Source: a virus | Taxonomy: Duplodnaviria > Caudoviricetes | IMG/VR virus record: IMGVR_UViG_3300032245_000701 | Span: 1-28,744 of that record | DNA length: 28,744 nucleotides | Reading direction: 5' to 3' (one strand) | In this document: piece after piece, positions 1 through 16,224 of the stretch | Layout: each line of letters starts with the position of its first letter | How positions within the stretch are numbered: position 1 is the stretch's first letter | The notes under the pieces: generated by a model | Database searches by the model: none | What the model saw: only the letters and a program-made list of their open reading frames with translations | Told to the model about the DNA's origin: nothing | Translations under genes and position numbers: made by a program

Positions 1-123
1 CAACTCGGCGAACTTTTCAATGTCTTGTTCTTTCTTTTTCATATGGCGTGTCTCCACTACCGGACCAATTTCTCTAGGCAATAGACCAGCCTCAACAGCA
101 AGTTGTTTAATTCGTTCGTTCAT
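1..123 (-). CDS. Partial paralog of the 'MNERI..KFAELIV.EC..HFGVEE' small-protein family (runs off the window edge)
   Basis: Manual translation from ATG at 123: MNERIKQLAVEAGLLPREIGPVVETRHMKKKEQDIEKFAEL. ATGA overlap with the stop of 120..344. Confidence 0.85.
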   Translation of the reverse strand, partial: MNERIKQLAVEAGLLPREIGPVVETRHMKKKEQDIEKFAEL

Positions 124-344
124 TCTTCAACTCCGAAATGTTCTTCAAATTGTTGAACAATATCCTGTGCCACATCATGACCAACCCAGTTGTTAGATAC
201 TATTCTAGACGGATGATATCGGCAAATATCAACACATTCCTTGACAATCAATTCGGCGAACTTAGCCAACACTTCTGGATCACAGTTCTGTTCATTGTAG
301 CCGATTCGAGCCTTCCACCAAAGTTCTTTAATTCGTTCGTTCAT
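120..344 (-). CDS. Small phage protein, MNERI/KFAELIV/HFGVEE family
   Basis: 74 aa with all three family motifs; ATGA-coupled on both sides. Confidence 0.85.
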   Translation of the reverse strand: MNERIKELWWKARIGYNEQNCDPEVLAKFAELIVKECVDICRYHPSRIVSNNWVGHDVAQDIVQQFEEHFGVEE

Positions 345-676
345 TCTTCAACTCCAAAATGTTCCAACAAATCTGATCCATCACAATAGGCCACACTGGC
401 ACCATTAGGATTGGCCAACTTGTCATCTAATGCTCGGGCACATTCCCTAACAATCAACTCGGCGAACTTTTCAAACCGAGCCATCTTTATTGCTTGAACA
501 TCCTCATGCTGCCAATTTACTTTGAACCCAGCCTGTTCGGCAAGGTCACGAATCCGTCCTTGAGCCAATGATTTGTTTCTTACCTTAACAAAGGCGTCAT
601 ATTGTTCCTGTGTACCTTCACTATATCCACCATCACCTGCGTGAATATCAGCACCTGCTTTAATTTGCTTGTTCAT
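341..676 (-). CDS. Small phage protein, KFAELIV/HFGVEE family with N-terminal extension
   Basis: 111 aa; RIRDLAEQAG..FEKFAELIVREC..HFGVEE. Confidence 0.85.
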   Translation of the reverse strand: MNKQIKAGADIHAGDGGYSEGTQEQYDAFVKVRNKSLAQGRIRDLAEQAGFKVNWQHEDVQAIKMARFEKFAELIVRECARALDDKLANPNGASVAYCDGSDLLEHFGVEE

Positions 677-933
677 TCTTCAACTCCAAAGTGTTGTTTA
701 ATCGCACGAGAACAATAATAAGTTCCATCATCAAAACTTTTATCTCCCCAATCATCAATATCTAAATCATCACAAACTTTAGCACATTCTTTGATAATCA
801 ACTCGGCAAACTTTTCCAAGTCTACAGAATGAAGTGTTACTGCATTTTCTGGTCGCTTCTCACCACGATAGTAAGCATAACTCAATTCGTTAGCATTAGC
901 CTGTTCGGCAAGTTCTTTAATTCGTTCGTTCAT
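673..933 (-). CDS. Small phage protein, MNERI/KFAELII/HFGVEE family
   Basis: 86 aa; SD AAGGAG supplied by the 3' end of the upstream gene. Confidence 0.85.
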   Translation of the reverse strand: MNERIKELAEQANANELSYAYYRGEKRPENAVTLHSVDLEKFAELIIKECAKVCDDLDIDDWGDKSFDDGTYYCSRAIKQHFGVEE

Positions 934-936
934 GTC

Positions 937-1263
937 TTACTCCTTAATGCCGTGGGCGGCTTCGATGGCGGCTTTTGCATCGTCTTTGTGTTCGCCTGCG
1001 TAGTATTTCCACACATCATCAAAATCAAGACCACATGAGTCGGCGTGGCGTTTTGCCAATGCTTTTCCACCAGCGACAATCATCTCATCCGTCAGCGGCT
1101 TGCGCTGTGGTGGGGTGGTGTAATAACGCTTGAGCATCCATTCCATAACATCACGCGATACAAACTGTCGTGTGTTTTCGTATATTTCTTGCTCAAGGTC
1201 GTCTAATGTCGCCACAGGCTCCTGCTCTACCGGCTCAAAAAACCCTTCATTGTTTACATCCAT
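937..1263 (-). CDS. Small phage protein, 'EQEPVA..YTTPP.RKPLTDE..EAAHGIKE' family
   Basis: 108 aa; shares three motifs with 1267..1719. Confidence 0.85.
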   Translation of the reverse strand: MDVNNEGFFEPVEQEPVATLDDLEQEIYENTRQFVSRDVMEWMLKRYYTTPPQRKPLTDEMIVAGGKALAKRHADSCGLDFDDVWKYYAGEHKDDAKAAIEAAHGIKE

Positions 1264-1266
1264 GTC

Positions 1267-1719
1267 TTACTCCTTAATGCCGTGGGCGGCTTCGTAGTCT
1301 TCAAGCATCCCAAGCGCCGCCTTGATTGCCCAGTCTTCTGCAAACCAGTTTGTCACAAGGTTGCTCTTTTGCTCATCCGTCAGCGGCTTTCGCGGTGGTG
1401 GGGTGGTGTAGAGAGGTATTGTGAAAGTTGATTTATCAAATCCTTTGCCAAATGTCCACAATCGACCATCGGGGTGCATCCACGCCACAGGCTCCTGCTC
1501 TGGCTGTGCCTTTTGAATCTTGTGACCTTCTGACGCACAAAATCCTGTCAGTAAACAAGCACCTGTTCGAACCTTTGGTTGCTCTGGTTGTGCTAATGCT
1601 TCTTTGATGGCGTCAATGGCTTCTTGCTCTCGCTCCCATGCGCGGCTTCCACAATCGCTTTCAGTTGTGTTCAACGCCTCAAGCGCCAGTTCTAATGCTT
1701 TTCTTTCTTCGTTAGTCAT
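1267..1719 (-). CDS. Small phage protein, 'EQEPVA..YTTPP.RKPLTDE..EAAHGIKE' family
   Basis: 150 aa; ALELALEAL..AIKEALAQPEQ..EQEPVAW..PLYTTPP motifs; internal AQPEQ duplication. Confidence 0.85.
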   Translation of the reverse strand: MTNEERKALELALEALNTTESDCGSRAWEREQEAIDAIKEALAQPEQPKVRTGACLLTGFCASEGHKIQKAQPEQEPVAWMHPDGRLWTFGKGFDKSTFTIPLYTTPPPRKPLTDEQKSNLVTNWFAEDWAIKAALGMLEDYEAAHGIKE

Positions 1720-2051
1720 TCTTCAACTCCGAAATGTCTTTTAATCTGATAACGAATATCTTCTGGGTGTGCCATACTAAACTTAGAACCAACATCAGCA
1801 CATTCCCGCACAATTAACTCGGCGAACTTTTCAAACCATTCGTTCATCCATTTCTCTTTTTCGCCATTATTGAGTTCTACATGATATCGTCCCGCCCACT
1901 CTATTTTAGGACAGGCAGATTCTTTAAGTTTTTCAATTCGTTCGTTCATTTTAGATTTGAGTCGAGGAGCATATGGACCTTTACTACAAACATGAGCCGC
2001 ATCAAAGTCTGGGTAAGTGTCCGCGCAATGTGGGCAAGTAATTTGTTTCAT
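1716..2051 (-). CDS. KFAELIV/HFGVEE family protein with N-terminal CxxC..HxC module
   Basis: 111 aa; CPHC..HVC segment fused ahead of an internal MNERIEKL core. Confidence 0.85.
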   Translation of the reverse strand: MKQITCPHCADTYPDFDAAHVCSKGPYAPRLKSKMNERIEKLKESACPKIEWAGRYHVELNNGEKEKWMNEWFEKFAELIVRECADVGSKFSMAHPEDIRYQIKRHFGVEE

Positions 2052-2275
2052 TCTTCAACTCCGAAATGTGTTTTGATAAATTCGTGCAATTCTAAATTGC
2101 CTGTAAAATCGTATTGATGATGATGGAAAGATTCTGCCATGTTAGCACATTCCCGCACAATCAACTCGGCGAACTTTTCTACATCAAAGTTGTGATTGTG
2201 CATGAACCGTTTTGGTTCGTACACCTGATTCCATGCACCCGATTCAAGTGCAAGTTTTTCAATTTGTTTGTTCAT
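2048..2275 (-). CDS. Small phage protein, KFAELIV/HFGVEE family (first gene of the array)
   Basis: 75 aa; MNKQIEKLALESG..EKFAELIVREC..HFGVEE. Confidence 0.85.
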   Translation of the reverse strand: MNKQIEKLALESGAWNQVYEPKRFMHNHNFDVEKFAELIVRECANMAESFHHHQYDFTGNLELHEFIKTHFGVEE

Positions 2276-2276
2276 T

Positions 2277-2456
2277 TTAGAGTCCTTTGATAAAGTCTAT
2301 CACTGTTCGGGCCTGTGTCAAGTCCATGTTGCTGTCATCCACTTCTTTGACCACAGGGCGGAACACATAGTGTGGATTCTTGATGGCATAAGGACTGGTG
2401 TTGTTGGTGGGCACAACATTGAATCGATCATAGCTCATCTGGCGTTTCTTGTTCAT
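2277..2456 (-). CDS. Hypothetical protein, 59 aa (absent from the ORF track)
   Basis: ATG at 2456 after AAGGAG; MNKKRQMSYDRFNVVPTNNTSPYAIKNPHYVFRPVVKEVDDSNMDLTQARTVIDFIKGL*; fills the gap between its neighbours. Confidence 0.75.
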   Translation of the reverse strand: MNKKRQMSYDRFNVVPTNNTSPYAIKNPHYVFRPVVKEVDDSNMDLTQARTVIDFIKGL

Positions 2457-2465
2457 ACTTGCTCC

Positions 2466-2846
2466 TTAGGTGATTAAAATATGTTTCTGGTTGGCTCGGT
2501 CGCTGTACAGTTGAGTACCACGCTTGCGGATCATGTCGGCCGCTGTCTGCGGTGTGGACTCAAACAGGTCACGCAAATCTTCTGCTGTGACTGTGCTGTC
2601 TGAAGTTACTGTATAAATTTCATAGTGTCGTTGTGGGTTGGCCCGGGCTCGCATGATCATCATACCGACTATTTGATTGACTTTTACCAAGTGTTCGTTG
2701 CGTGGCACCGTGTCTGGATCGCGAATTATGTCAAACAGTTTTTCTTGTTCAAATGTTTCCGACTGATCACGGTCTTCGGTGATGTCAATGCAGGCTTCAA
2801 GTCCGGTGTTGTCCCAACTCACAATGAAAAGATTTTGTTTCTTCAT
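2466..2846 (-). CDS. Hypothetical phage protein (probable true start MKKQ at 2846)
   Basis: The track's 'MYNST' extension reads through the -10 box of a promoter; the ATG at 2846 lies 6 nt after the -10. Confidence 0.8.
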   Translation of the reverse strand: MKKQNLFIVSWDNTGLEACIDITEDRDQSETFEQEKLFDIIRDPDTVPRNEHLVKVNQIVGMMIMRARANPQRHYEIYTVTSDSTVTAEDLRDLFESTPQTAADMIRKRGTQLYSDRANQKHILIT

Positions 2847-2852
2847 AGTGCT

Positions 2853-2881
2853 ATTGTACAATCAATACCATTATTAGTCAA
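2853..2881 (-). promoter_or_regulatory. Sigma70-type promoter TTGACT-17bp-TACAAT
   Basis: -35 at 2876-2881, -10 at 2853-2858, 17-bp spacer; ATG 6 nt downstream with no SD. Confidence 0.75.
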
Positions 2882-3272
2882 TTGCTCTGCGGAAAATGAT
2901 TTCCTGTCGTGCAAAGGCTTCTTGTTCCCAAGGTTGATCCAAATACGGAGTGCGTCTTGAGTAAAACTTGCCACGCCATTTTTTACCTTGTGGTGTTATC
3001 TTTAATATACCTTTGGCCAATTGGCGCACATGGACCAATTCGTGTGCCAGTGTTACACCCAATTCTATAAGATTGCGTCGGGGTTTTAACACAACCAACA
3101 CGGTATCTATACCTGTCATTGGCACGGTGGTGCCGTGATCTGTTAACTCGCGATCTACTTTGATCATTAAAAGTCGACGACTACTGTTCAACCCCAATTG
3201 AGTCAGCATACTGGGCAGTACCGCTTCAATGAAGCGTCGAGTCTTGGGACCTGCTTCAACATGGAATTGCAT
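2874..3272 (-). CDS. Zincin-like metallopeptidase (HExxH)
   Basis: TLAHELVHVRQ plus downstream PWEQEA (third-ligand Glu region). Confidence 0.75.
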   Translation of the reverse strand: MQFHVEAGPKTRRFIEAVLPSMLTQLGLNSSRRLLMIKVDRELTDHGTTVPMTGIDTVLVVLKPRRNLIELGVTLAHELVHVRQLAKGILKITPQGKKWRGKFYSRRTPYLDQPWEQEAFARQEIIFRRAID

Positions 3273-3282
3273 TTTGTGTTCC

Positions 3283-3609
3283 TTAGTGGCTGTTCAGTGC
3301 GGGATTAAATTCTGCAATCAACGCACGTTCACGAGCATGAGCAGGCTTGCGTCCACGCACAAATTCTACGATGCCGTAAGTGTGTGCAAGTGTGCCGTGT
3401 TCGCGAATTGACCGGCACAGGTTCCAATCTTTGTTTTCGGTAACTGCACGGCGTACATGTTTTTGGACACGCACTCGGAGTGCTTTGCGAACTTGCTGAC
3501 CGCAAACTGTAATACCAATATACTGCTCACCTGTTACTGTATTAGTGATACAGTAAACAACATGTTTGGTATCTTGGCGTCTTTTTCGGGGTTGCTTTTT
3601 AAGTTCCAT
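3283..3609 (-). CDS. GIY-YIG nuclease-family protein (probable start MELKK at 3609)
   Basis: VVYCITNTVTGEQYIGIT (VY..YIG), R..RVQKH, ERALI..FNPALN; single catalytic domain. Confidence 0.8.
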   Translation of the reverse strand: MELKKQPRKRRQDTKHVVYCITNTVTGEQYIGITVCGQQVRKALRVRVQKHVRRAVTENKDWNLCRSIREHGTLAHTYGIVEFVRGRKPAHARERALIAEFNPALNSH

Positions 3610-3615
3610 ACAAGT

Positions 3616-3644
3616 ATTATACAAAAGATGCCTTTTTTGGGCAA
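3616..3644 (-). promoter_or_regulatory. Sigma70-type promoter TTGCCC-17bp-TATAAT
   Basis: -35 at 3639-3644, -10 at 3616-3621; ATG 6 nt downstream with no SD. Confidence 0.7.
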
Positions 3645-3655
3645 ATCTCGGCCAT

Positions 3656-3684
3656 AAAAAAGTACTACTTTTGTAGTACTTTTT
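3656..3684. terminator. Inverted repeat, probable intrinsic terminator (possibly bidirectional)
   Basis: AAAAAGTACTAC-TTTT-GTAGTACTTTTT just downstream of the 3713..4378 stop. Confidence 0.65.
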
Positions 3685-3712
3685 GGAACTTAAAAAGTAG
3701 TACTTTTGTGTA

Positions 3713-4378
3713 CTATTTGAACTTGTATTTTTCAGCCATCAATTCATATAATTCTCGATTTGAGAATCCAACGGTTAGTGCAAGTCGTTTATTTCTCACA
3801 TTATGGACACTATGAATCACATTGGTTTCCAACATATACCAGTGCCCTTTTTCAAGTACTGCACTATCTAACAGAGTCAGGCCAGCCAGGTCCATTTTGT
3901 GTATTGCAATGTGTTTTTCGTTTGCTATATCATCAATCTCTTTGGAACCTTGGGGATTGTTAAACACCGCCACTTCTCTATAAATTGTGTGCCCATCTTC
4001 TTGCCACCAGGCAGTGCGTACATCAGCACCACCAGTTTCAAACATGTATTGCAATACCTGCTGTCCTCTACGACCATCAGTGTGTGCAGGTAGTTGGCAC
4101 GTTCTACCATTGGATAAATTGCTGTTCATTTGCATGGTGAGACCAATTTCTCTTGAGTGGCCTTTTAATTCTGGGAATGTATCAAATACCCAATCCTGCA
4201 CAGGAGTTTTTACTTCGTACCTGCTGTACGATCCAACGTTTTGAACAGTCCCATCTAGTTGAGTTATGCCAATGGTGGCATTGGTGGGCATCATTCTTTT
4301 AAAGAATACATGCTCGGTGGCCATATCGCTGTGGGCAAATGGTGGTGGTGGGGCTGACAGATGTGAATAGTACTTCAT
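3713..4378 (-). CDS. 2OG-Fe(II) dioxygenase-like (DSBH) protein
   Basis: LPAHTDG (HxD), VIHSVHN (distal His), KRLALTV (2OG-binding Arg). Confidence 0.7.
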   Translation of the reverse strand: MKYYSHLSAPPPPFAHSDMATEHVFFKRMMPTNATIGITQLDGTVQNVGSYSRYEVKTPVQDWVFDTFPELKGHSREIGLTMQMNSNLSNGRTCQLPAHTDGRRGQQVLQYMFETGGADVRTAWWQEDGHTIYREVAVFNNPQGSKEIDDIANEKHIAIHKMDLAGLTLLDSAVLEKGHWYMLETNVIHSVHNVRNKRLALTVGFSNRELYELMAEKYKFK

Positions 4379-4618
4379 TTAATGCAGGGTGGCATCATTG
4401 TCGATATCGTCAATGTCTCTGACTCCGAATATTTTCAATATTTTTTGCACATTTTTAGGTGCAGTAAAAGATCCAGTTTCGGGCAGTAACACGCTTTTTA
4501 ATTCCCCAGTTGGCCCAATGATAAAAGCGTAATCTTCGTCTTCCCAATTTACCTCATTGAGGAATTCGTCAATTTCCTCTTCTGTCTCTCTTGTAACCTT
4601 GGACATGTTGTCCTCCAT
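4379..4618 (-). CDS. Small acidic hypothetical protein
   Basis: 79 aa, D/E-rich; TAAATA motif at 4628-4633 upstream. Confidence 0.75.
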   Translation of the reverse strand: MEDNMSKVTRETEEEIDEFLNEVNWEDEDYAFIIGPTGELKSVLLPETGSFTAPKNVQKILKIFGVRDIDDIDNDATLH

Positions 4619-4630
4619 TGTTATTATTAT

Positions 4631-4963
4631 TTACTTAAAAAGTATCATAGCCATTATGGTTGCTTGGGCAATAAACCCAATTCCAATTGTGACAATATTC
4701 AACGTATCTTTAAGAATTACTGCACGACCAAACAGCAGTACAAGTCCGGCCCACATAAACAACACAACATCCAAACTTGGAGTTCGATCGCTTAGGCCGG
4801 TTAATAGTGCCAGCAGTGAAGGTACCGTGGCACAATGTATTACTATTGCGGCCAACCAACCCAAGGTGTCTGCTGAGATTTTACCAAGGTGATCTTCAAA
4901 AAATTTAACAATATTAAATTTAACCTTGGCCAGAGTAAAGAGATTTATATCAGGTAATTTCAC
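4631..4963 (-). CDS. Three-TM membrane protein (PQ-loop/SemiSWEET-like pattern; holin candidate)
   Basis: Three hydrophobic segments; LGWLAA..TVPSLL..SL..WAGLVL pattern; directly downstream of the cell wall hydrolase. Confidence 0.6.
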   Translation of the reverse strand: MKLPDINLFTLAKVKFNIVKFFEDHLGKISADTLGWLAAIVIHCATVPSLLALLTGLSDRTPSLDVVLFMWAGLVLLFGRAVILKDTLNIVTIGIGFIAQATIMAMILFK

Positions 4964-4966
4964 TGA

Positions 4967-5542
4967 TTAGTCCTTGTAAAAGATGTGACGGCCAATTTGG
5001 CTGATTTTCTTTTTGCCCCAATTGGGATTAACATAATCCCCATGGAAGTAAAGTGCATCACGCATTGTACTAAGTCTAAAGTTTTCTAGCAAGACTTTCT
5101 TTGCCACTTCTTCACTTTCTTTATAAAGTGCAGGATATATGGGTCGGATTTTGTGTGTGGGTTCGCAAGCCCAACTAAACTGGCAAATAATCTTGCCAAA
5201 GTAATTGTTCTTTTGATATACCACTCCGCATACGCCTTCACCAAAACGGCCCGATGCAACTCGATTCATGGTGACTTGGGCCACAGCAACTTTGCCTTCA
5301 AAAGGCTCACTTGCGGCTTCCCAGTAGATGTTCTTGGTCAAACAATCCAACTGCCGAGTACGATCTGCTGTACTGACAAAACCTTGACGGTAAGCTTCTG
5401 AGCCTTCCCTTAGGTTTTCGAATTTAATATTGACTGCGTGTACTAGCACCGCGGCAATCAAACATAAACCCAACAATTTCAACAGCATTGTAGTAAATGC
5501 CGCTAAAAGGTCTTGGTTGATACGAGACATGAGTGTCATCAT
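4967..5542 (-). CDS. SleB/Hydrolase_2-family cell wall hydrolase with N-terminal membrane anchor
   Basis: CLTKNIYWEAASE (catalytic Glu), AVAQVTMNRV, CGVVYQ, CQFSW, ALYFH..YVNPNW, IGRHIFY; SD AAGGAGGT at 5548-5555. Confidence 0.9.
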   Translation of the reverse strand: MMTLMSRINQDLLAAFTTMLLKLLGLCLIAAVLVHAVNIKFENLREGSEAYRQGFVSTADRTRQLDCLTKNIYWEAASEPFEGKVAVAQVTMNRVASGRFGEGVCGVVYQKNNYFGKIICQFSWACEPTHKIRPIYPALYKESEEVAKKVLLENFRLSTMRDALYFHGDYVNPNWGKKKISQIGRHIFYKD

Positions 5543-5628
5543 ATTTTACCTCCTTCTATAGGTGTGTAGTTTTATATAACCCATTGGGTCGTGCGGTAAA
5601 CGACTAATATAACCCAATAACTGAGTAT

Positions 5629-5657
5629 ATTATAGCATATTTGTCGTGGAAAATCAA
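5629..5657 (-). promoter_or_regulatory. Sigma70 promoter with extended -10 (TTGATT-17bp-TATAAT, TGn)
   Basis: -35 at 5652-5657, TGCTATAAT at 5629-5637, upstream of the SleB-like gene. Confidence 0.75.
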
Positions 5658-5674
5658 GTAATATGGGTAGTTAA

Positions 5675-7255
5675 TCAAGGCTCAGGCCGCCCGGCTGCAC
5701 CAAATATATAACTATCTTCTCTCATTCGAGCTTGAGATTCAATTGCTCTTTGACGTTGCCATTGCAAATTTCTACCCTCAACAAGTGATGCCTTGACTGC
5801 ATCACCGCCCACATTACTTTGCAGACAGTTATTGAAAAGAGCGTTGTACCCAAGCTGGTAAGTGTCCACGCCATAATTGTGTAGACTGTTAACTAAACCC
5901 AAAGTACTGTTTACACCTGTTGGCGAAGTGGCATCCAAGTTGGCATCGGCCAATAGCAGATTGCTCAATTCAAGTGCCAGATGTGTTTGCACAGCTTTGA
6001 TGGCTGTGTTGGCCGATGTGATGGTTGTGGACAATGCAACATTGGCATTGCATTCTGCTGTAAATGTGTTTGCCGCAGTCCACGTGGTTGCAATATTACT
6101 GTTGATAAATGCAATATTGCCTGTGCCACAAGCGGTTGCCAAATTTATCAATGCTGTGTTTAGTGCAGTTGCTGAAGAATATGTTAGCGTTGTGGTCAGC
6201 GCAGATGACACAGTGGTTAAATTATCAGTGACGCCAACTCCTGCCACAGTGCCCAACATATCTGTAATTAGTGGATTGTACACCGGTCCATTACCTTGGC
6301 CCAATTTAACTGTTAATCTATTGTATTCAACGTCGGGAATAATAGTTGTATATGATTCAAGGTACGGTAGGTCAGGAACTTCCATGCTTCCAATTAGATC
6401 CGACAAGTCGGCAAAACTCCGAAAACGCCCGCCCAAGTTTAACAATTCGTTTGATAGTCCTTCTAGAGTACCATTGGGAACCACAGCCACAGCCTCTGCG
6501 GGAAATATCATATCCAGTTCCAACAACTGCGACAAGTTGGTAACAGCAAGAGGTTCAGGCAACACAATTTTGGTTTGGCTTATGACGGCCTGCAAGGCTG
6601 CACCAGATACTTGGCTAAGTGCATTTAGCAAATAGTCTTCGTTATCTGCGGTGACAAAAGTCTTAGGTAGCAGGCCTTGTCTTTGCAAATTGGCTATAAA
6701 CACAGTTGGATCGTGCATTTTCCCTGGCTGTGCCGCATCAAATGCTGTTCCCAGATTTTTTAACGCAGATGCCAACACATTGATATCTGACTGACTGCCA
6801 AATATAGTACTAAATCCATTTGTCACTGAACTAGTGTAGTCGGTTACGCTGATACCCAAGTTGGCAAATTCTTTACTGTAAAAGTTTTCCAACTCGTTGT
6901 TCATCTTCCAGCTGGTGGTTGCAAATGAACTGGCCGCTGATAACAAACTAGCGAACTTGGCTATGTCGTAAGTGCCATCACCGTTACTGGGCAACATTTT
7001 GTTGCACTGAGTTTGTGCGCTGACAATTGTGGTATTTGCATTGGCGATAAACTCGGGTAGGTGTAAGTCAACAACGTTGAAGCCTCGTCCAGCAAGCGTT
7101 GTACCATATGTTGTTCCCGGTTGTAGGTTGGCATAGTTACTCACTAGACTGTTACTGATCACAGTGGACATGGTTGTAGTCATAGTGGCATTGGGTTGCA
7201 ATCCAATATTGCTAGTTAGGTTACTAGCGGCAATCATTATCACAGGAGTTGTCAT
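5675..7255 (-). CDS. Hypothetical 526-aa protein, probably virion structural
   Basis: Long ORF rich in A/T/N/S/L; follows the PAAR-like gene. Function inferred from context only. Confidence 0.6.
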   Translation of the reverse strand: MTTPVIMIAASNLTSNIGLQPNATMTTTMSTVISNSLVSNYANLQPGTTYGTTLAGRGFNVVDLHLPEFIANANTTIVSAQTQCNKMLPSNGDGTYDIAKFASLLSAASSFATTSWKMNNELENFYSKEFANLGISVTDYTSSVTNGFSTIFGSQSDINVLASALKNLGTAFDAAQPGKMHDPTVFIANLQRQGLLPKTFVTADNEDYLLNALSQVSGAALQAVISQTKIVLPEPLAVTNLSQLLELDMIFPAEAVAVVPNGTLEGLSNELLNLGGRFRSFADLSDLIGSMEVPDLPYLESYTTIIPDVEYNRLTVKLGQGNGPVYNPLITDMLGTVAGVGVTDNLTTVSSALTTTLTYSSATALNTALINLATACGTGNIAFINSNIATTWTAANTFTAECNANVALSTTITSANTAIKAVQTHLALELSNLLLADANLDATSPTGVNSTLGLVNSLHNYGVDTYQLGYNALFNNCLQSNVGGDAVKASLVEGRNLQWQRQRAIESQARMREDSYIFGAAGRPEP

Positions 7256-7256
7256 A

Positions 7257-7550
7257 TTACACTCCTACAGTAATTTTGCTGGCACCCGGTCCAGTTATGG
7301 GGCCAGGCCCCCAGTATTCTCTTCTGTTCTTTTTAACAGATACTGTTGTTTGATCACCAACCACACTCAACACTTTACCTTCTATAGTAACTCGGGAAGC
7401 ACCGGGACCTGTAACAGTTTCTCCATGATCTGTTTTGTCGCTGCCAACTAGCACAGGTTTTTTGCCTTCAAAGGTCACAGTGGACGCACCAGGGCCTGCT
7501 ACGCTTTCGCCCTTGGCAGTTGCATCACCGACTAATGAAGGTATGGCCAT
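7257..7550 (-). CDS. PAAR-like baseplate spike-tip protein
   Basis: 97 aa; three repeats of VG(S)D..G..(V/I)xGPGASxV, matching the PAAR/gp5.4 repeat architecture. Confidence 0.75.
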   Translation of the reverse strand: MAIPSLVGDATAKGESVAGPGASTVTFEGKKPVLVGSDKTDHGETVTGPGASRVTIEGKVLSVVGDQTTVSVKKNRREYWGPGPITGPGASKITVGV

Positions 7551-7551
7551 A

Positions 7552-7863
7552 TTAAACTATAATTTTTTGTTTGGGTGCAACATCAATACCGGTTGTGGTC
7601 TTGATATAATGCGATTTCATTTGTTCCAAGGACTCGGCATGGAACATGACATGTTGCCGACTTAGAAATACCTTGGCATCTTGGTCAGCACTGAATAGAC
7701 TCTGAATCAAGCCTATGCCCTGTTGACTTGGCATGACTGTACAGGGACTGGCAACATTGAAGCCTTCGCCTGTTTCTTCTACAACCTTGGCCACCAGTTC
7801 GTCACCGTTGACCATCTTGAAACTCACTACGTCACCTGATGCATATCGTTGATTTACTAACAT
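7552..7863 (-). CDS. Small beta-barrel (Sm-like) phage protein
   Basis: GDVVSFKMVNGDELVAKVVEE..P motif typical of Sm-like folds; fold is inferred. Confidence 0.55.
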   Translation of the reverse strand: MLVNQRYASGDVVSFKMVNGDELVAKVVEETGEGFNVASPCTVMPSQQGIGLIQSLFSADQDAKVFLSRQHVMFHAESLEQMKSHYIKTTTGIDVAPKQKIIV

Positions 7864-7864
7864 A

Positions 7865-8107
7865 TTAACCTTTTAGTTCTGCCCAAAACTCTTCGCCTTT
7901 GCCGGCAATACCTTGGTAACCGCCTTGGATAAGAGTTGTGCCATTGAAAATTTGTGGTACACTACGCAAGCCCATGTCCAGTAGATGTTGACGTGCGTCT
8001 TGATCTTCTTCTACACTGATGGTGGTGTATTCTACACCTTTGCTCTCTAAGAGACTTTTAGCCCGATCGCAAAACGGGCAATTACTTTTTGAATAGACTG
8101 TTATCAT
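7865..8107 (-). CDS. grx: Glutaredoxin
   Basis: VYSKSNCPFCDRAK, RSVPQIF, GGY; directly downstream of nrdB. Confidence 0.95.
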   Translation of the reverse strand: MITVYSKSNCPFCDRAKSLLESKGVEYTTISVEEDQDARQHLLDMGLRSVPQIFNGTTLIQGGYQGIAGKGEEFWAELKG

Positions 8108-9234
8108 TATAAACTAAAACCTTTAAATGTGTTGTTGTCAACATCTTGTTTTGTACCACCCACTACATAACTGCTGATTTCAGTTTCTTGTGGTGCTACT
8201 TGTACTTCAGCTCCGGCAATCCATTTGGCGGTCCACGGTAAGGGATTGGAACCAGGCTTCATGCCACAATCTAATCCCACTGCTGTCATGCGCTTGCAGG
8301 TCAACCAGTCAACATACTGTCCCAATAATTGTTCATTGAGACCAATCATTGATCCGTCTTTGAACAAATATTTAGCCCAGGCTTTTTCCTGTTCTGCTGC
8401 CTTTAAAAACATTGCCTCACACTCGGCTTTGGTCTCTTGCTTGAGTTGGGCAAACGCAGGATCATCGCCGGGCAATAGTTTGATCAACATCTGTGTACTG
8501 CCCAAGTGTACATTCTCGTCACGACAGATCAATTTGATGATCTTGGCATTACCTTCCATCTTCTTGAGCTCAGCAAAGGCCCAGGAGCAGGCAAACGAAA
8601 CATAGAAGCGAATGCCCTCTAATGCGTTCACGCTGTTGATGGCAAGCCATAGTTTCTTCTTGAGTTCGTATGTGTCGATTATTACAGTTTTGCCGTTGAT
8701 GACATGTGTGCCTGCACCCAATAAATTATAGTACCCACCATACTCAATTACATCATCATAATACTTGCTAATATCTTTTGCACAATTAACGATGGGCTCA
8801 ATGTCCATGAGTTCGTCAAAAATTCTACCAGGGTCTGAGTATACATTGCGAATAATGTGAGTATAACTGCGGCTGTGGATGGTTTCATTAAATGCCCAAG
8901 TTTGTATCCAGGTCTCTAATTCTGGAATTGAAACAAAGGGCAAGAACGCTAGATTGGGACTGCGACCTTGCACACTATCTAATAGAATCTGTCTTTTTAA
9001 ATTACTAGTGAAAATATGTTGTTCAAATTCGGTCAACTCTTTGAAGTCTTTGCTGTCACGCATGACATCAACTTCTTCAGGCCTCCAAAAAAATCCCAAC
9101 TGCTTGTCTGTTAGTTTATCAAACTGTCTATATTTTAATGTTTCGTAGCGTTGTATAGTTACAGGGCCACTAGGATCAAGGAATGCCAGAGCTTCTGTAT
9201 GTTTTTTATTATTATTAATGTTAAATACACTCAT
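8107..9234 (-). CDS. nrdB: Ribonucleotide reductase class Ia beta subunit
   Basis: FFWRPEEV, LLDSVQGR, ETIHSRSYTHI, LEGIRFYVSFACS, RDENVH, VAPQETEISSY. Confidence 0.97.
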   Translation of the reverse strand: MSVFNINNNKKHTEALAFLDPSGPVTIQRYETLKYRQFDKLTDKQLGFFWRPEEVDVMRDSKDFKELTEFEQHIFTSNLKRQILLDSVQGRSPNLAFLPFVSIPELETWIQTWAFNETIHSRSYTHIIRNVYSDPGRIFDELMDIEPIVNCAKDISKYYDDVIEYGGYYNLLGAGTHVINGKTVIIDTYELKKKLWLAINSVNALEGIRFYVSFACSWAFAELKKMEGNAKIIKLICRDENVHLGSTQMLIKLLPGDDPAFAQLKQETKAECEAMFLKAAEQEKAWAKYLFKDGSMIGLNEQLLGQYVDWLTCKRMTAVGLDCGMKPGSNPLPWTAKWIAGAEVQVAPQETEISSYVVGGTKQDVDNNTFKGFSL

Positions 9235-9246: not shown

Positions 9247-9951
9247 TCACTTTTCAAATACAATTCTAATGTTTCCATCTAGTTCATCTTTATCCTCGGC
9301 TGTGTCAATATCAAATATCAATACCGTGGCCGGTAAATCTGTCAACTGCTCACGTATGTACTGATCCAATAATTCTGCACTGGGTTCTTCTGAACCAAAT
9401 GTGTCAATTAAATTTTCCGGAGCTTCGCGTTTTATCATGGTATTTGCATCTAAAGATATAAATCCACGACCACCATCTTTAATAATTGATATAAAGCCCA
9501 GTACTCGATCACGCAACGAGCTTAATGGTACATAATGCAGGCTACAAACAGCCATGGCCGATTCATAGTACTCTTGGTGGTTTGAAACAAAATCAAAATC
9601 AAAAAAATCAAATTCGTCGCCGTACCAAGCATTGTCGTTGTCAGGATTGTCGGGGCTTATACCAATAATGTTTGGAATGTATTTTTTAAACATGTTCCAC
9701 CCGCAACCAATATCATGTATAGATTCTGGGTTATTTTCTAACAGTTTGTTAATGTAATAAAAACTGGCCATGCTACCAATTTTTGTGCCAAGTATTTGTC
9801 TTGGGGTGGTGTATAACAATTCTGTAACTAAATGTTTGTCCCAAACTAATAGTTCAAAATCTTTTGCTACTGCCTGGCCAAGTTCAGTCTTACTAAACTG
9901 TTCTTCAAATTCTTCTTGGTTGTATTCGTTTAAATTATGCATGAATCGCAA
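9247..9951 (-). CDS. SAM-dependent methyltransferase-like protein between nrdA and nrdB
   Basis: IHDIGCGWN (motif I), CSLHYVP, IKDGGRGFI; start possibly the ATG at 9942, overlapping the nrdA 3' end. Confidence 0.7.
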   Translation of the reverse strand: MRFMHNLNEYNQEEFEEQFSKTELGQAVAKDFELLVWDKHLVTELLYTTPRQILGTKIGSMASFYYINKLLENNPESIHDIGCGWNMFKKYIPNIIGISPDNPDNDNAWYGDEFDFFDFDFVSNHQEYYESAMAVCSLHYVPLSSLRDRVLGFISIIKDGGRGFISLDANTMIKREAPENLIDTFGSEEPSAELLDQYIREQLTDLPATVLIFDIDTAEDKDELDGNIRIVFEK

Positions 9952-12236
9952 TCCTCTTGATTTTCAATTGTTTCTGCCTTAGGGAGATTTTGTTTTTCAC
10001 TCATTTTATCAACATCAATTTCGCCCTGGCCGTCATTGGTGTTAAAATAGTATAATTGCTTAGTTCCATATTTATAGCACATGATCAAGTGCTTGAGCAT
10101 TTCACTCATTGGGATCTTTTCATCTTCGTAAAATTTGGGGTTGTACGAAGTGTTGGTACTAATACCTTGATCAATATATTTTTGCAATACTGCACACAGT
10201 TTTAGATAGCCTTCTGGCGACTTTTGATCCCATAACAATTCGTATTTGTTCTTCAATTTACGGTACTCGGGTACAACTTGTCGTAATACACCATGTTTGC
10301 TTTGTTTAATGCTCACATAACTTCTAGGTGGTTCAATTCCGTTGGTAGCATTACTTATCTGTGCAGATGTCTCAGCTGGCATTAATGCCATCAACGTGGC
10401 ATTGCGAATACCAGTATTCAAAATTTGCTCGCGCAAGGCACGCCAAGGCATGCGCTCTTGGTGCTCAACCAGTTCATCTACTTCTCGTTTGCGTGTGTCA
10501 ATTGGTAGTAAGCCATCTGCATACTTTAAATTTTGCCAGGCGGTGCAAGGTCCCTGTTCAGCGGCAAGATCGGCACTGGCCTTGATTAAATAATAACTCC
10601 AGGCTTCTGCATACTCATCTACAAGTGCCAATGCTCGAGGATCACTATAACTAACATCATTCTTGGCCAAGAAGTAGGCAAAGTTGATAATACCATTACC
10701 CAACGGACGATATTCTTGTGTTGATAGTTCGGCGGCTCTAACAGGATAATTCTGATAACTGAGCAATGCATCCAGCCCGCGAACACTGAGAGTACACATG
10801 CGCTCAAAATCTCGGGGCGATCGAACATTGCCCCAATTTTGTGCGCTGAGTGTACACAGGGCAATACGACCATTTTCATCCCGGACATCGTCAAGTGGTA
10901 CTGTTGGCAAATCAATTTCACTGCACAAGTTGCTCATCTTGATAGGAGCAATCTTTTCCTTGAACGGACTGTGCGTGTTGGCATGGTCTACATTTTGTAA
11001 ATAAATGCGACCTGTATCTTTGCGCTCTTGCATGAACTTGCCAAACAGATCTGAGGCCTTGAATGTTTTCTTACGCAACTTTGTGTTGCGTTCTGCACGT
11101 TCATACAGTTCTTTAAAACGATCTTGATCATTAAAAAATGCATTGTACATTTCCGGAACATCGTGCGGGCTAAAACAAGTGATGTCACCACCCTGAATCA
11201 ATCTCTCGTACATGAGTTTATTAAACTGTACACCATAGTCCATTTGGCGCACACGATTTTCTTCGGTACCTTTGTTGTTTTTCAGTACCAGTAGGTCTTC
11301 AATTTCCAAATGCCACAAGGGATAGTAAGCGGTGGCGGCGCCATTACGCACACCACCCTGACTACAACTGCGAGTGGCGGCTTGAAATAGTTTTAAGAAG
11401 GGAGTAACACCAGTATGGTATGCATCACCGTTACGAATAGGGCTGCCAAGGGCTCTAATACTGCCTGCGCCAATTCCAATTCCGGCTTTTTGGCTAACAT
11501 ACTTGACAATGCTTGCGGCAGTAGCGTTAATGGAATCCAGACTGTCATCAGACTCAATAAGAACACAACTGCTGAATTGTTTTTGCGGTGTTCGTACACC
11601 AGCCATAACAGGGGTAGGTAAACTGATATCAAAAGTGCTGATTGCATCATAGTAGTCCTTTACCCATTGCAGTCGGGTCTCTGGGGGATAGGCCATAAAC
11701 AAAGTTGCGGCTATCATCATGTAGGCCACTTGCGGAGTTTCGTAAATCTCATTAGTCACACGATTTTGCACCAGGTACTTGCCGCGCCATTGCTCCATGG
11801 CCACATAGGTAAATGTTTCGTCACGCTCATGTTTGATGTAAGCACCAAGTTGACCAATTTCATCTTCTGTGTAGTTGGCCAATAATTCTGGAGTGTAGTA
11901 ACCAATGTCTGTGTTTCTTTTAACCAACTGCAACAAAGGCCACGGTTTATAACCGCCATACACCTGTTTGTGTATATGGTATGTGAGTAAGCGCCCAGCC
12001 ACATATTGATAATTGGGTGTTTCTTCACTAATTAAATCTGCCGCACTCTTAATTAATGTTTCTTGAATGTCTGCACTTTTAATGCCAGTGTAAAATTGTA
12101 TATGACTTTTAATTTCAACTTCGCTGGCGCTAACACCTGTTATGCCCTCGGTTGCCCAAAATACAACTTTATGTAATTTCTCTAGATTTAATGGCTCTTT
12201 GTTTCCATTTCGTTTTGTGACGTATATTTGACTCAT
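9930..12236 (-). CDS. nrdA: Ribonucleotide reductase class Ia alpha subunit with ATP cone
   Basis: VTKRNG ATP cone, QFSSCVLI, SNLCSEI, ALCTL, LMPAETSAQISNATNGIEP, LYY, C-terminal CDSC. Confidence 0.98.
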   Translation of the reverse strand: MSQIYVTKRNGNKEPLNLEKLHKVVFWATEGITGVSASEVEIKSHIQFYTGIKSADIQETLIKSAADLISEETPNYQYVAGRLLTYHIHKQVYGGYKPWPLLQLVKRNTDIGYYTPELLANYTEDEIGQLGAYIKHERDETFTYVAMEQWRGKYLVQNRVTNEIYETPQVAYMMIAATLFMAYPPETRLQWVKDYYDAISTFDISLPTPVMAGVRTPQKQFSSCVLIESDDSLDSINATAASIVKYVSQKAGIGIGAGSIRALGSPIRNGDAYHTGVTPFLKLFQAATRSCSQGGVRNGAATAYYPLWHLEIEDLLVLKNNKGTEENRVRQMDYGVQFNKLMYERLIQGGDITCFSPHDVPEMYNAFFNDQDRFKELYERAERNTKLRKKTFKASDLFGKFMQERKDTGRIYLQNVDHANTHSPFKEKIAPIKMSNLCSEIDLPTVPLDDVRDENGRIALCTLSAQNWGNVRSPRDFERMCTLSVRGLDALLSYQNYPVRAAELSTQEYRPLGNGIINFAYFLAKNDVSYSDPRALALVDEYAEAWSYYLIKASADLAAEQGPCTAWQNLKYADGLLPIDTRKREVDELVEHQERMPWRALREQILNTGIRNATLMALMPAETSAQISNATNGIEPPRSYVSIKQSKHGVLRQVVPEYRKLKNKYELLWDQKSPEGYLKLCAVLQKYIDQGISTNTSYNPKFYEDEKIPMSEMLKHLIMCYKYGTKQLYYFNTNDGQGEIDVDKMSEKQNLPKAETIENQEDCDSCII

Positions 12237-12697: not shown

Positions 12698-13288
12698 TTA
12701 ATAAATTGAGCTAATTCTATAAAATAAATTAGCGTTGGTTGTTGCTGTGTAATTTAAATTTGCTGTTGTGACATTGGCATTCATGGTAAACACAACATCA
12801 GTGACGGCGGTTTCTGTGTATTCTTCAACGTAACTAACTGTTCCGCCAGCTCTACTCACAGTTATGGTACCAGTGCGCTCAGCGGCGCCTTGACCCAGTG
12901 TATAACTAATAATAGCGTTGTTTGATGTTATACTAGATATTGTTGCATTAACTGCACCAGCTAGTATATTGGCGCTGGTGGATCCAAGTGAGCCATTTTC
13001 TAAATTAGTTACTCTGCTAGATAGTGATGTGATATTGCCGTTGATAACAACCAAGTTGCCTTCTATCACCCCAATATTAGATGCAAATCCAGCAGTAAAA
13101 TCAAGTATGCTATATTGAGTTAGAACTTCAGTTTTTCCAAGGCTTGGTGCGCCTTCTTCGATTGTGCCATTGCCGATGTAAAGTTTGCGTGTGTCCACAC
13201 TCCAACCCAGTTCGGCCGAAGCCAAATTGGGCAAATCTGATTCTAAACCGCGTCTGTGTTGTATGCGGCTAATTTGTATAACGGCCAT
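12698..13288 (-). CDS. Short fibre-like virion protein with Mtd_N/hyaluronidase-type N-terminal domain
   Basis: IQHRRG..LPNLASAELGWSVDTRKLYIGNG, then a short coiled coil; SD GAGG and CTAAATA upstream. Confidence 0.75.
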   Translation of the reverse strand: MAVIQISRIQHRRGLESDLPNLASAELGWSVDTRKLYIGNGTIEEGAPSLGKTEVLTQYSILDFTAGFASNIGVIEGNLVVINGNITSLSSRVTNLENGSLGSTSANILAGAVNATISSITSNNAIISYTLGQGAAERTGTITVSRAGGTVSYVEEYTETAVTDVVFTMNANVTTANLNYTATTNANLFYRISSIY

Positions 13289-14027: not shown

Positions 14028-15139
14028 AATAAATTTATCTTTTGTTGAATTTGATCCCGTGCTTGTTTATCCCAGTCAGTTGATACCAATAGATTGTAGT
14101 TGTGTTCAAGTATATCCTTTGCTTGGAGATATATGTTGGCCTGGTCGGTGTTGCACAAAAATTTTACCTGTTCCATGGCCGCATGATATCTAGCAGTATC
14201 ATCTACGATTTGATCATAACTTTCATCAATGATACCATCAAATGTTTTAAATCCTGCACTGCGTAAATTTTCTAAAAATTTATACCCAGTAAAGGCCACA
14301 AACAGTCTACGGGCAATTATGGGCTTGGCTGTTTTTTCTGTGTAGAAACTCAGTGAGCTGTCTGTGTTGGTTTCAGCCACTATGCTGTAGGCAGTCTGAT
14401 TGAACACATCAATGGGTATTACTCTACTCAGCGGTATTTTTATATCATTATAACACACATCGAAACATGTAGTACCATAAGTGTGTCCTATTGATTCTTG
14501 TGCGGGATAACAGTCTTTCTCCCATACAAAATTACCCTTGATTGTGACATCAGAGTCGCCCATATATGTCATGATAAATTTGTCTTGCAAGTTGTTGGCA
14601 ACAACACCTTCGTATACTGCATCTCTATTGACTCGTTTCCGGCCCAGCAAGGCGTCAAAATATTTGGGTTTGGGCAAGGCATAGGAAATTTCCGCTAACC
14701 TGTTGGATAAACGATCTTGATATAATCTTGCTATGATCTTTAACCAGTCGTGCCAAACAATGATATTGTTTTTAAGAGCCGACGGTTGTGTCACTGTTCC
14801 AGGTATTACCCAATACACATTGTCATGATGACATTGATTCCATACTGCCCATTGAGTGCTGTGTAATTCACCACCAAAGGTAAACACCAAGTCACTGGCA
14901 TGACTTAATTCATTTATTTTGTCAGGGAAGTCGACCTTGGGCAGTGGTCCTGGACGAGGTGGGTCACCAATGTCATAGTCCAGTGCAAATTGCTCTGTGG
15001 TAAAAGCTATTTTTTTATCTGCTTGTGCATTGGCGTACTCATGCCTGCTGAGATACAGAGTACGGGCGCCAGGAAAAGATAACATGGGTAACCACAACCC
15101 GTTAAAGAAATTACTATCAGTATAAACTGCTACCAACAT
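14024..15139 (-). CDS. Glycosyltransferase-like hypothetical protein
   Basis: YSIVAET..FYTEKTAKPI..GFKTF..IIDESYD resembles the GT10/fucosyltransferase nucleotide-sugar motif (YxTEK); function inferred. Confidence 0.5.
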   Translation of the reverse strand: MLVAVYTDSNFFNGLWLPMLSFPGARTLYLSRHEYANAQADKKIAFTTEQFALDYDIGDPPRPGPLPKVDFPDKINELSHASDLVFTFGGELHSTQWAVWNQCHHDNVYWVIPGTVTQPSALKNNIIVWHDWLKIIARLYQDRLSNRLAEISYALPKPKYFDALLGRKRVNRDAVYEGVVANNLQDKFIMTYMGDSDVTIKGNFVWEKDCYPAQESIGHTYGTTCFDVCYNDIKIPLSRVIPIDVFNQTAYSIVAETNTDSSLSFYTEKTAKPIIARRLFVAFTGYKFLENLRSAGFKTFDGIIDESYDQIVDDTARYHAAMEQVKFLCNTDQANIYLQAKDILEHNYNLLVSTDWDKQARDQIQQKINLL

Positions 15140-15462
15140 TAAACTCTAAAACTTTCCCCACATCCACAGCGGTCGCGCTCATTGGGATTGCTAAACTCAA
15201 AGCCTTCGTTCAGGCCCTGGCGTACATAGTCCACGGTCATGTTGTCAAGATACACATTGTCTTTTTGATTTACTAGCACCACAAAGCCATCTTGTGCATA
15301 GTTTATTATATACGGCTCTGCGGTGTATTCTCGTACATATTCTAACACGTAGGCCAGTCCCGAGCAACCTGTGGTTTTTACCCCAAGACGAACACCAGCA
15401 TAGCCTTTGGCCGCGACTAGTTTTTGTATTTTTGTTCGTGCCGCATCAGTTAGCGAGATCAT
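15139..15462 (-). CDS. iscA: Fe-S cluster A-type carrier IscA (probable start MISLT at 15462)
   Basis: GVRLGVKTTGCSGLAY, DYVRQGLNEGFEFSNPN, CGCGESF; 107 aa. Confidence 0.95.
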   Translation of the reverse strand: MISLTDAARTKIQKLVAAKGYAGVRLGVKTTGCSGLAYVLEYVREYTAEPYIINYAQDGFVVLVNQKDNVYLDNMTVDYVRQGLNEGFEFSNPNERDRCGCGESFRV

Positions 15463-16198
15463 AGGTTTTAATAAATTTTTGTAAACCACTTTCCCACACT
15501 ATGGTCACTTTGTAACCCTGAGATTCTAAATAGTTTATTCTTTCTTGGTCTCGGTCACGCTTTTCTTTAGCAGTCTTTTTTAATTGAGGGTGATAAAAAT
15601 CATCTTCAAATAATTTAGGATTACAATGCCAATAATCACCGTATACTTCAATGATATGTTTTGTCGATTCGTTTACATAATCAGGTTTGTATTTTCCGAT
15701 TCTAATGTCGATTCTATAATCAGTTAATATCGATTCTAACAATTTTTCTTTTTTACTACGTGGAGAAGTTTTAGCGAGATGCCCGACATTTTCTGTACCA
15801 TATCGTTCAAGATTAGTTTTTTTAACTTTTTCAAAATAATCAGGTGTATGTTTCTTTCCTTTAAAATTACCAGGTAGCCCGGTATTCCATGCAGTTTGCA
15901 ATCCTTTTGAATTTTTATTCCAGGGAGTTCTTCCTTTGCAGGATTCAGATAAATTCTTAACCCATGCGTCTCTATTTCGTTCTCTAGTAGCATATCGATC
16001 GGCATTCCAGGTCCTAGATTCTGCCATATCTGGATTTCGTTGCCAGTGTAATTTTGCAGAACAAGATTTTGAACAGCATTCTACACCGGAACCTTTTACT
16101 AATGTTCCACAAATAGGACACGGTTTATGCCCTTTTTGATATCCAGTTTTATTATCTTTTCTAAGAGATATGCCACATCCACATTTACATATATTCAT
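15446..16198 (-). mobile_element. Free-standing homing endonuclease-like gene (Zn ribbon, NUMOD-like repeats, Vsr/DUF559-type nuclease)
   Basis: CKCGCG, CPICG..CCSKSC, KGRTPWNK/TAWNTG/KGKKHT, KPDY..IIEVYGDYWH..RDQER..GYKVTIVWE; visibly AT-richer; sits between iscU and iscA; probable start MNICK at 16198. Confidence 0.8.
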
Positions 16199-16203
16199 AA
16201 CTT

Positions 16204-16210
16204 TATTTAG
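16204..16210 (-). promoter_or_regulatory. Late-type promoter CTAAATA 5 nt before the endonuclease ATG
   Basis: CTAAATA-AAGTT-ATG on the minus strand; no SD. Confidence 0.55.
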
Positions 16211-16224
16211 CAAAGTTATTTGTT

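Follow-up and report, generated by a model that had tools for sequence, protein, structure and literature searches.

In the pilE/pilS minicassettes of Neisseria and the orphan modules of CdiA/Rhs, one expressed locus is served by silent donors within a single bacterial genome. The PeSL cassettes of T4-type phages are described as intergenic sigma-70 promoters with a stem-loop terminator, for which mini-circles have been shown (PMC2839356, PMC4122927). The gp38 adhesins of T-even phages are single-copy virion adhesins with hypervariable segments between conserved glycine-rich motifs (PMC3157838). The locus analyzed here occupies positions 1–2275 of the IMG/VR virus record IMGVR_UViG_3300032245_000701, the whole of which (28,744 bases) is the window of this analysis. 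It appears to be an array of translationally coupled small genes from two very large phage families, A and B, whose modules recur beside other partners in hundreds of further phage contigs and were most probably brought into new pairings by recombination, homologous or based on short homology, at constant DNA blocks common to thousands of genes. We put the probability of this reading at about 0.8. The earlier note on this DNA, made from the letters alone, had proposed that the constant blocks serve as recombination anchors, and the comparison across loci supports this proposal, since modules are found re-paired and breakpoints lie in the blocks.

The array consists of eight genes arranged head to tail on the minus strand, the strand of all called genes of the window. 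Six belong to family A and two to family B, and gene calls together with a profile bear out the at least six and two copies that had been noted by eye. Family A proteins, about 60–110 amino acids (aa) long, are defined by an N block (MNERIKEL-like), a middle block (KFAELIVREC-like) and a C block (HFGVEE-like) in this order, and family B proteins by EQEPVA, YTTPPxRKPLTDE and AAHGIKE linkers between modules. The first array gene within the window encodes a 75-aa family A protein (2048–2275) and is followed by a 111-aa family A gene (1716–2051), in which a Cys/His-rich N-terminal extension is fused in frame at an internal N block (1926–1955). Next come the two family B genes: B2 (150 aa, 1267–1719), which begins in an ATGA shared with the stop codon of the family A gene before it, and B1 (108 aa, 937–1263), predicted to begin disordered and to continue with a middle module of two helices, a Pro-rich linker and a C-module that likewise has two helices. 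The remaining genes belong to family A: an 86-aa gene (673–933), whose protein was used for the structure model; a 111-aa gene (341–676) with an N-terminal extension preceding a degenerate N block; a 74-aa gene (120–344); and the N-terminal 41 codons of a gene truncated by the contig end (1–123). A profile built from database hits recovers six window members of family A, five complete and one truncated, all inside 1–2275. They are 31–47% identical, with invariant columns in the N-terminal block (I5, L8) and in the middle-block core (KFAEL). The segments between the blocks differ in length and cannot be aligned, in agreement with the earlier description of unrelated interiors.

The genes are tightly joined. 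Stop and start codons overlap by four nucleotides (nt), as ATGA, at five junctions (120–123, 341–344, 673–676, 1716–1719 and 2048–2051), and two junctions have 3-nt spacers. The final codons of each family A gene contain a GGAG located 7 nt before the next ATG, and the family B tail carries an AAGGAG ribosome site. Just upstream of the first array gene, a promoter-like site on the minus strand (2294–2321, TTGACA-16 nt-TAGACT with TG) matches the consensus and is identified by that match only.

The junction block, with its reference copy at 321–364, comprises the HFGVEE codons with GGAG, the ATGA in which stop and start overlap, and the opening codons (MNERIKEL) of the gene that follows. The repeat finder gave seven copies of this 44-nt block, 64–100% identical to the reference; it placed further copies at 100–143 (95% identical to 321–364) and 653–696 and partial copies at 910–953, 1696–1739, 1926–1969, 2028–2071 and 2252–2281. 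The middle block (EKFAELIVREC) at 437–479 has other copies at 1–25, 249–273, 799–823, 1795–1839 and 2142–2186, reported as five to six copies of 25 nt at 72–100% identity. In family B, the 39-nt YTTPPxRKPLTDE linker block at 1084–1122 recurs at 1372–1410 (95%) and the 19-nt EQEPVA linker block at 1210–1228 recurs at 1483–1501 (100%). The family B tail block (EAAHGIKE, AAGGAG, stop, spacer and next ATG) at 931–964 has an exact copy at 1261–1294, the 34-nt repeat that the earlier note had singled out. All these blocks lie on the minus strand. The earlier description of the constant parts as near-identical holds for the block cores and not for every copy, as some are only 60–80% identical over 44–53-nt spans. 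The repeats of the array are direct and in frame, and the sole inverted repeat in 1–4000 is at 3658–3707.

The evidence for re-pairing comes from 160 loci and the window (161 sources), which together hold 537 family A members, 1–13 per locus and on a single strand in nearly every locus. Cutting at the blocks gave an N-module and a C-module for 436 of the 537; we dropped modules shorter than 8 residues and merged identical N/C combinations, leaving 349. Among pairs of these combinations, at an identity of at least 80%, both modules are shared in 6 cases, the N-module only in 100 and the C-module only in 97. Loci were treated as syntenic when they share at least 1000 nt at ≥93% identity. Between non-syntenic loci, the second module is unrelated in 226 of the 234 gene pairs that share a module, whereas between syntenic loci only 6 of 73 such pairs are discordant; seven further pairs with one module only in common lie within the same locus. 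Relatives thus do not carry the same genes in the same order free of chimeras. Across the gene junction, where the C-module of one gene is followed by the N-module of the next, 12 of 13 pairs are discordant. As discordance is found both within genes and across the junction, the middle block and the junction block both appear to be exchange points.

Individual window modules show the same promiscuity. The following counts come from the 120 best database hits, a list that a word-based search enriches for the query's own modules. The C-module of 673–933 is present in 89 of them, with 64 distinct N-modules; the N-module of 1716–2051 is present in 17, with 13 C-modules; and the N-module of 673–933 is present in four, each with a different C-module. 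At the DNA level, the C-module of 673–933 is 100% identical to that of a gene in locus L086, whose N-module is unrelated, and its N-module is ~97% identical to that of a gene in L006, whose C-module is unrelated; in the alignment of the three, the switch falls inside the middle block. Fourteen proteins carry the Cys/His-rich extension of 1716–2051 (window 1952–2051), fused in frame at the N block to seven different cores, so that it behaves as a third kind of module; a second extension type was found on three cores.

Breakpoints can also be located without splitting genes into modules. Of the 12,880 locus pairs in an all-versus-all blastn comparison of the 161 sources, 5819 have high-scoring segment pairs (HSPs) at ≥93% identity, and in 5759 of these the shared sequence totals less than 400 nt. 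The HSPs, with a median length of 36 nt, lie inside family genes in 10,655 of 10,759 cases, in contigs that are otherwise unalignable. The 126 shared segments of 80–400 nt (≥93%) between non-syntenic loci have 179 ends in family genes; 166 ends are in blocks and 13 in variable parts, against a block share of 56% of family A gene length. Loci L024 and L071 have five segments in common (136–528 nt, 91–97%) in scrambled order. The DNA identity of modules shared between unrelated family A loci has a median of 0.83–0.86 and reaches 100% in only 11 of 119 N-sharing and 1 of 107 C-sharing pairs, so most family A exchanges are not recent.

The blocks are conserved in DNA to an extent that the protein does not account for. 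We compared the codons of the blocks in 383 unique family A genes with those of the variable parts of the same genes, noting that the resulting p-values ignore relatedness. Seven codons run against the background: Asn AAC (88% in blocks, 32% in the background), Arg CGA (90% and 19%), Leu CTT (74% and 17%), Ala GCC (83% and 19%), Glu GAG (87% and 23%), Leu TTG (91% and 28%) and Gly GGA (97% and 25%). The Val codon within the middle block is at background (commonest codon GTT, 42% in both) and the adjacent Arg codon is variable. The window's block copies use the same codons as the family consensus. In an age-matched control using module-sharing pairs, the codons of identical residues differ at a rate of 0.323 (N) and 0.275 (C) in the modules versus 0.12–0.155 in the flanking blocks. 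For random family A pairs without a common module, the codon difference in the middle block is 0.212. The earlier note had held that its proposal would fall if synonymous divergence in the blocks matched protein-level constraint alone; the counter-background codons and the lower synonymous change of the blocks depart from that expectation.

These data bear directly on the view that the array arose by tandem duplication and divergence without any exchange, the blocks being merely its protein-constrained parts. Arrays of tandem paralogues are common in large phages, and the blocks do coincide with confidently modelled helices. However, duplication cannot place a 100% DNA-identical module beside an unalignable one, cannot produce 226 discordant pairs out of 234, and cannot give block codons that run counter to the background with synonymous rates below those of neighbouring modules. 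On the sequences compared, it appears already contradicted by these observations, and we regard it as scarcely credible.

A more serious possibility, although still a rather unlikely one, is that the blocks are kept for expression and that recombination is a by-product, with the junction serving as an optimised cassette of stop, ribosome site, start and early codons and the middle block as some RNA or DNA signal. The C block has GGAG 7 nt before ATG with the stop overlapping the start, and the family B tail has AAGGAG. Furthermore, the junction RNAs are no more structured than shuffled sequences and one is less so (z 0.55, 0.70, −0.35 and 2.36), as for open initiation regions. For the middle block and the linkers of family B, both intragenic, there is no comparable explanation. 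Folding of eight block regions revealed no common structure (z −1.2 to +2.4); a shared fold fails to emerge for the signal postulated here (z −1.2 to 0.2), and there is no conserved internal start, since the Val codon varies. Nor was any promoter-like site detected on the coding strand within 1–2275, the nearest being that at 2321–2294, upstream of the array. Maintenance for expression is compatible with re-pairing by recombination at the blocks, not opposed to it.

Independent samples were examined through contigs assembled at k=31. Sequence words of bases 1–2,600 are present in 20 runs from eight studies, comprising lake, freshwater and estuary metagenomes and two runs with coded organism names. 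One contig (X1 record 1) covers 120–350. The contigs of four studies end at blocks, and the summed block depth reaches 13,431 in X2 versus a few hundred in most variable bins. Modules with zero differences from the window are present in other studies (941–1112 and 1265–1506 in X2; 528–931 in X3; 935–1123 and 1265–1507 in X8). Past the blocks, contigs enter mutually disagreeing sequences (agreement 0.4–0.6 at 474, 898, 933 and 2147). X3 retains two of the window's gene adjacencies, 528–931 with no differences and 1481–2059 with 19. Positions 2263–2600 have no contig cover in X2, X3 and X8, which is not evidence of absence. The metagenome scan gave no close relative of the window array (best 67%), so that gene order is comparable only through the k=31 contigs. 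A mini-circle suggested by a single backward-pointing joint in X2 was not counted, as one side is short and letters in between are unknown.

Such contigs raise the question of whether assemblers jumped between paralogues at the blocks while the true genes were never reassorted. The blocks are repeats at which k=31 contigs break, many hits are on contigs of 0.5–2 kb, and the evidence as a whole comes from assembled contigs. Still, exact identity within the blocks extends over only ~20–35 nt, which is shorter than the final k-mers and the read lengths of the usual metagenome assemblers. Intact, in-frame chimeric genes are present on contigs of 100–370 kb, and identical combinations turn up repeatedly (P0007 on 32 contigs, P0023 on 34 and P0224 on 31). 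The common modules have diverged to 0.83–0.86 beside unalignable partners, which is beyond what an assembler can yield, and k=31 contigs of other studies bridge the blocks into other partners. Assembly chimeras are thus unlikely, and the odds are heavily against their accounting for the reassortment.

Family B follows a similar logic with different parts: its database hits are strings of modules connected by recurrent linkers. Of the 120 best hits, 92 carry the B1 middle module, flanked by 34 different upstream and 43 different downstream segments, and 24 carry the B1 C-module, preceded by 16 different segments; both modules are present in nine. Family B relatives were found in 33 IMG/VR loci, where pieces of the window's family B genes (128–309 nt) recur at 96–100% identity (100% in L181 and L183, 99% in L168 and L169). 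These pieces stop at linkers, and the rest of window 1–8000 is unalignable there. Several family B exchanges are recent. In the linker Tyr-Thr-Thr-Pro-Pro-Gln-Arg, the seven codons are identical in all 21 unique sites bar one Gln codon. The neighbours of family B elsewhere differ from those in the window and include a YqaJ-like exonuclease and an HNH-like gene, named from their translations without a family search; none of the 33 loci contains family A. The two family B genes have a guanine-plus-cytosine (G+C) content of 49–50% versus 36–43.5% for the family A genes of the window, and the median G+C is 0.466 in family B loci versus 0.406 in family A loci. As both the window B genes and the B loci are richer in G+C, the composition suggests that family B was imported into this array. 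What is new here is that family B, a modular family of linker type, sits among the genes of a family A array; elsewhere it occurs in other kinds of phage contig.

How re-pairing at the blocks might proceed can be outlined. Crossovers, both inside one phage genome and from one genome to another, would take place during co-infection or between paralogous copies, at the ~23-nt core of the middle block, at the ~44-nt junction block or at the family B linkers, and each product would remain in frame and coupled. Modules carrying consensus blocks would spread further, and the blocks would thereby be held constant, like homology arms. The junction block probably doubles as a ready-made translation start. 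A short-homology route, such as single-strand annealing or template switching, would be as likely as classical homologous recombination, because the uninterrupted homology is short and the cleanest switch falls in an 8-nt part.

Several points weigh against re-pairing by recombination. The free Val and Arg codons break the middle block, leaving two uninterrupted stretches of homology, of only ~23 and ~8 nt, a short substrate for classical homologous recombination, and the cleanest case, that of the window versus L086, switches within the 8-nt part. No crossover event has been observed, no recombinase is tied to the array, and every mosaic rests on short-read assemblies. The family A modules of unrelated loci are mostly not recent. 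The location of HSP ends in blocks is partly expected by construction; 101 of the 537 members were left unsplit by the motif rules, quite apart from the short modules that were dropped; and both the family A best-hit list, with its bias toward query modules, and the block-codon p-values, with their neglect of relatedness, call for caution.

Re-pairing might instead be driven by an enzyme, either a site-specific recombinase or a homing endonuclease that cuts the blocks, with repair from another copy. A GIY-YIG-like gene at 3283–3624 lies ~1 kb upstream of the array, the window and the family B loci also contain HNH-like and DUF559-like genes, and nucleotide-specific conservation would suit a recognition site. 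Against this, recombinase, integrase and reverse transcriptase are absent among the scanned open reading frames (ORFs) of the window, and selection on a target is not expected to preserve cut sites. We therefore consider an enzyme-driven origin improbable. The absence of a visible reverse transcriptase or integrase, on which the earlier note had remarked, thus holds for the scanned ORFs of a window that represents ~8% of the genome.

Both families are very large. A profile of the six window copies matches at least 7972 family A proteins at an expect value (E) ≤0.001 (8000 candidates scored), and 6712 representatives of 50%-identity clusters at E≤0.001, 618 of them at E≤1e-10. Family A was confirmed in 529 of 619 matched stretches in the IMG/VR DNA scan (~1100 estimated) and in 471 of 607 in the metagenome DNA scan (~2900 estimated). 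Family B comprises 2699 proteins at E≤0.001. Searches of Pfam, PHROGs, NCBIfam and PADLOC placed neither the array proteins nor ten family B relatives in a usable family (PHROG and Pfam cut-offs E≤0.01 and 0.1). PADLOC, a library of defence rather than anti-defence proteins, gave a single marginal match (E 0.009) among 11 proteins. Family A was not found in cultured phages when 50,697 phage records were searched with megablast and tblastn. The matches to a 61-nt junction query were at chance level (E 0.4); they lie in Rheinheimera Barba and Erwinia Hena2 phages, and the profile detects no family member in either region. Literature searches turned up no paper on either family.

The only relative in a cultured phage concerns family B: a distant match to its C-module (50% over 50 aa) in Limnohabitans phage DC31. 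The DC31 gene (6887–7156 of locus L201; PQ492658.1 36658–36927) encodes a small protein that starts with a coiled-coil-like region and ends in a part similar to the C-module of 937–1263. This relative hints, by sequence, at betaproteobacterial freshwater hosts. Family A was not found in the DC31 genome.

The array products are predicted by modelling to be small, acidic, helical proteins; the family A medians are 75 aa for length and 4.9 for isoelectric point. The model of the 673–933 protein has a predicted local distance difference test (pLDDT) score of 75 and a predicted template modelling (pTM) score of 0.61, and its helices 3–11, 39–56 and 73–82 correspond to the three blocks. Middle-block residues 41–50 average a pLDDT of 94, and the variable segments, which are poorly modelled, 56–59. 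In the B1 model (pLDDT 80, pTM 0.48), helical hairpins at 20–48 and 59–103, the latter with a pLDDT of 95–98, are separated by an unstructured linker. The models thus depict family A as three framework helices with two variable segments between them and family B as helical modules on proline-rich linkers. The shared scaffold with variable loops that had been anticipated fits the family A model and not family B, whose blocks are inter-domain linkers.

Comparison with solved folds yielded no relative: the best PDB sequence-profile match has E 0.43, and Foldseek against PDB gave no matches at E≤0.001. The best VIA wide structure matches had Z 4.7 with family A and Z 6.0 with the C-module of B1; these matches are generic helical hairpins or bundles and were set aside; the ESM Atlas returned only unnamed viral clusters. 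A zinc site formed by the middle-block Cys and the C-block His was also rejected: the Cys is present in 355 of 382 sequences and the His in 295, but a C-x3-C...C arrangement in only 60.

That the proteins are diversified binders against host or rival-phage targets is a guess. A broader proposal would make the blocks the homology arms of mobile half-gene and whole-gene cassettes that circulate among unrelated freshwater phages, from giant to lambdoid-like, on the same hosts. The result would be a community-wide combinatorial library of mini-binders for phage–host or phage–phage conflict, with two independent architectures, framework helices and domain linkers, in one operon. We offer this tentatively, as a possible but doubtful extension of re-pairing at the blocks.

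The rest of the window shows what kind of genome the array belongs to. CheckV gives a completeness of 8, that is, ~8% of a genome. Family searches identified ribonucleotide reductase, a DnaB-type helicase, a primase fragment, an exonuclease, a radical-SAM protein, iron–sulphur (Fe-S) assembly genes and a cell-wall hydrolase. Helicase identity is 49% with Pseudomonas phage PA5oct and 47–48% with Agrobacterium phage Atu_ph07 and Sinorhizobium phage Phosso. With these identities, and with no near match in the phage collection, the window represents a piece of a large (giant) uncultured freshwater phage, far from all members of that collection.

Several other minus-strand genes of the window may be recorded. 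Ahead of the GIY-YIG homing-endonuclease-like gene (3283–3624) are a 20-nt inverted repeat (3658–3677 / 3688–3707, 90% complementary) and a promoter-like site (3644–3616). The cell-wall hydrolase (Hydrolase_2 / endolysin-like) is at 4967–5542, and a PAAR-motif protein of 97 aa is at 7257–7550. The ribonucleotide reductase beta (8107–9234) and alpha (9930–12236) genes are split by a 234-aa ORF without a known family (9247–9951). A 196-aa protein (12698–13288) carries Mtd_N, the N-terminal domain of the major tropism determinant (E 5e-9), and no reverse transcriptase was seen in the window. Fe-S cluster assembly genes, carried here on a phage, span 15139–16605, with an IscA-like gene at 15139–15489 (PF01521) and a NifU/IscU-like gene at 16225–16605 (PF01592). 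Between the two is an endonuclease-like gene (15446–16213; DUF559 / phrog_13076), which may be a homing-endonuclease insertion. An ORF of 1104 aa at 22209–25523 matches no Pfam or PHROG family, and its local G+C is 51–54% versus 36–48% in the remaining 1-kb windows.

If re-pairing by recombination at the blocks is correct, these phages build protein libraries by cut-and-paste inside genes, and the blocks preserve frame, ribosome site and start codon such that any exchange yields a working gene. The array would then allow a test of whether selection can act on DNA for the sake of recombination and not of the protein. Family A would represent a small natural scaffold with two swappable segments, as modelled, and family B would apply the same logic with domain linkers, crossing phage lineages. 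Family A is abundant in lakes, with block depth more than tenfold that of the variable parts in one run. Given its 6712 clusters, its absence from Pfam, PHROGs and cultured phages and its abundance in lakes, it would therefore make up a visible share of the small 'dark' phage genes.

Comparison with known systems sets the array apart from most of them. Unlike a diversity-generating retroelement, it has no reverse transcriptase among the scanned ORFs of this ~8% of a genome, and its variable parts differ in length and are unalignable; unlike an integron or shufflon, it has no integrase or recombinase among those ORFs, and its repeats are direct and in frame. It resembles pilE/pilS and CdiA/Rhs in that short conserved coding stretches flank variable segments, guide recombination and preserve the frame, and differs in that all array copies look expressible and exchange occurs between phage genomes as well as within them. 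As in the gp38 adhesins, conserved structural motifs separate independently interchangeable variable segments within one protein (PMC3157838). The array is made, however, of multi-copy ~75-aa non-structural proteins, and its blocks are predicted to be helical, not glycine-rich as in that account of gp38; PHROG and Pfam searches give no sequence relation between the two (PMC3157838).

Relative to PeSL cassettes (PMC2839356), the array blocks are coding and in frame rather than intergenic, and neighbouring genes overlap by 4 nt. The blocks lack a sigma-70 promoter consensus and a stable stem-loop (z −1.2 to +2.4); array genes are ATGA-coupled, and exchange also splits genes midway (PMC2839356). 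With PeSL the array shares short repeated DNA motifs, plastic regions of small genes without assigned function and exchange points between unrelated sequences (PMC2839356, PMC4122927). In both systems, the motif ends with a Shine-Dalgarno sequence and the next start codon, here GGAG and ATGA, and marks the points of exchange (PMC2839356).

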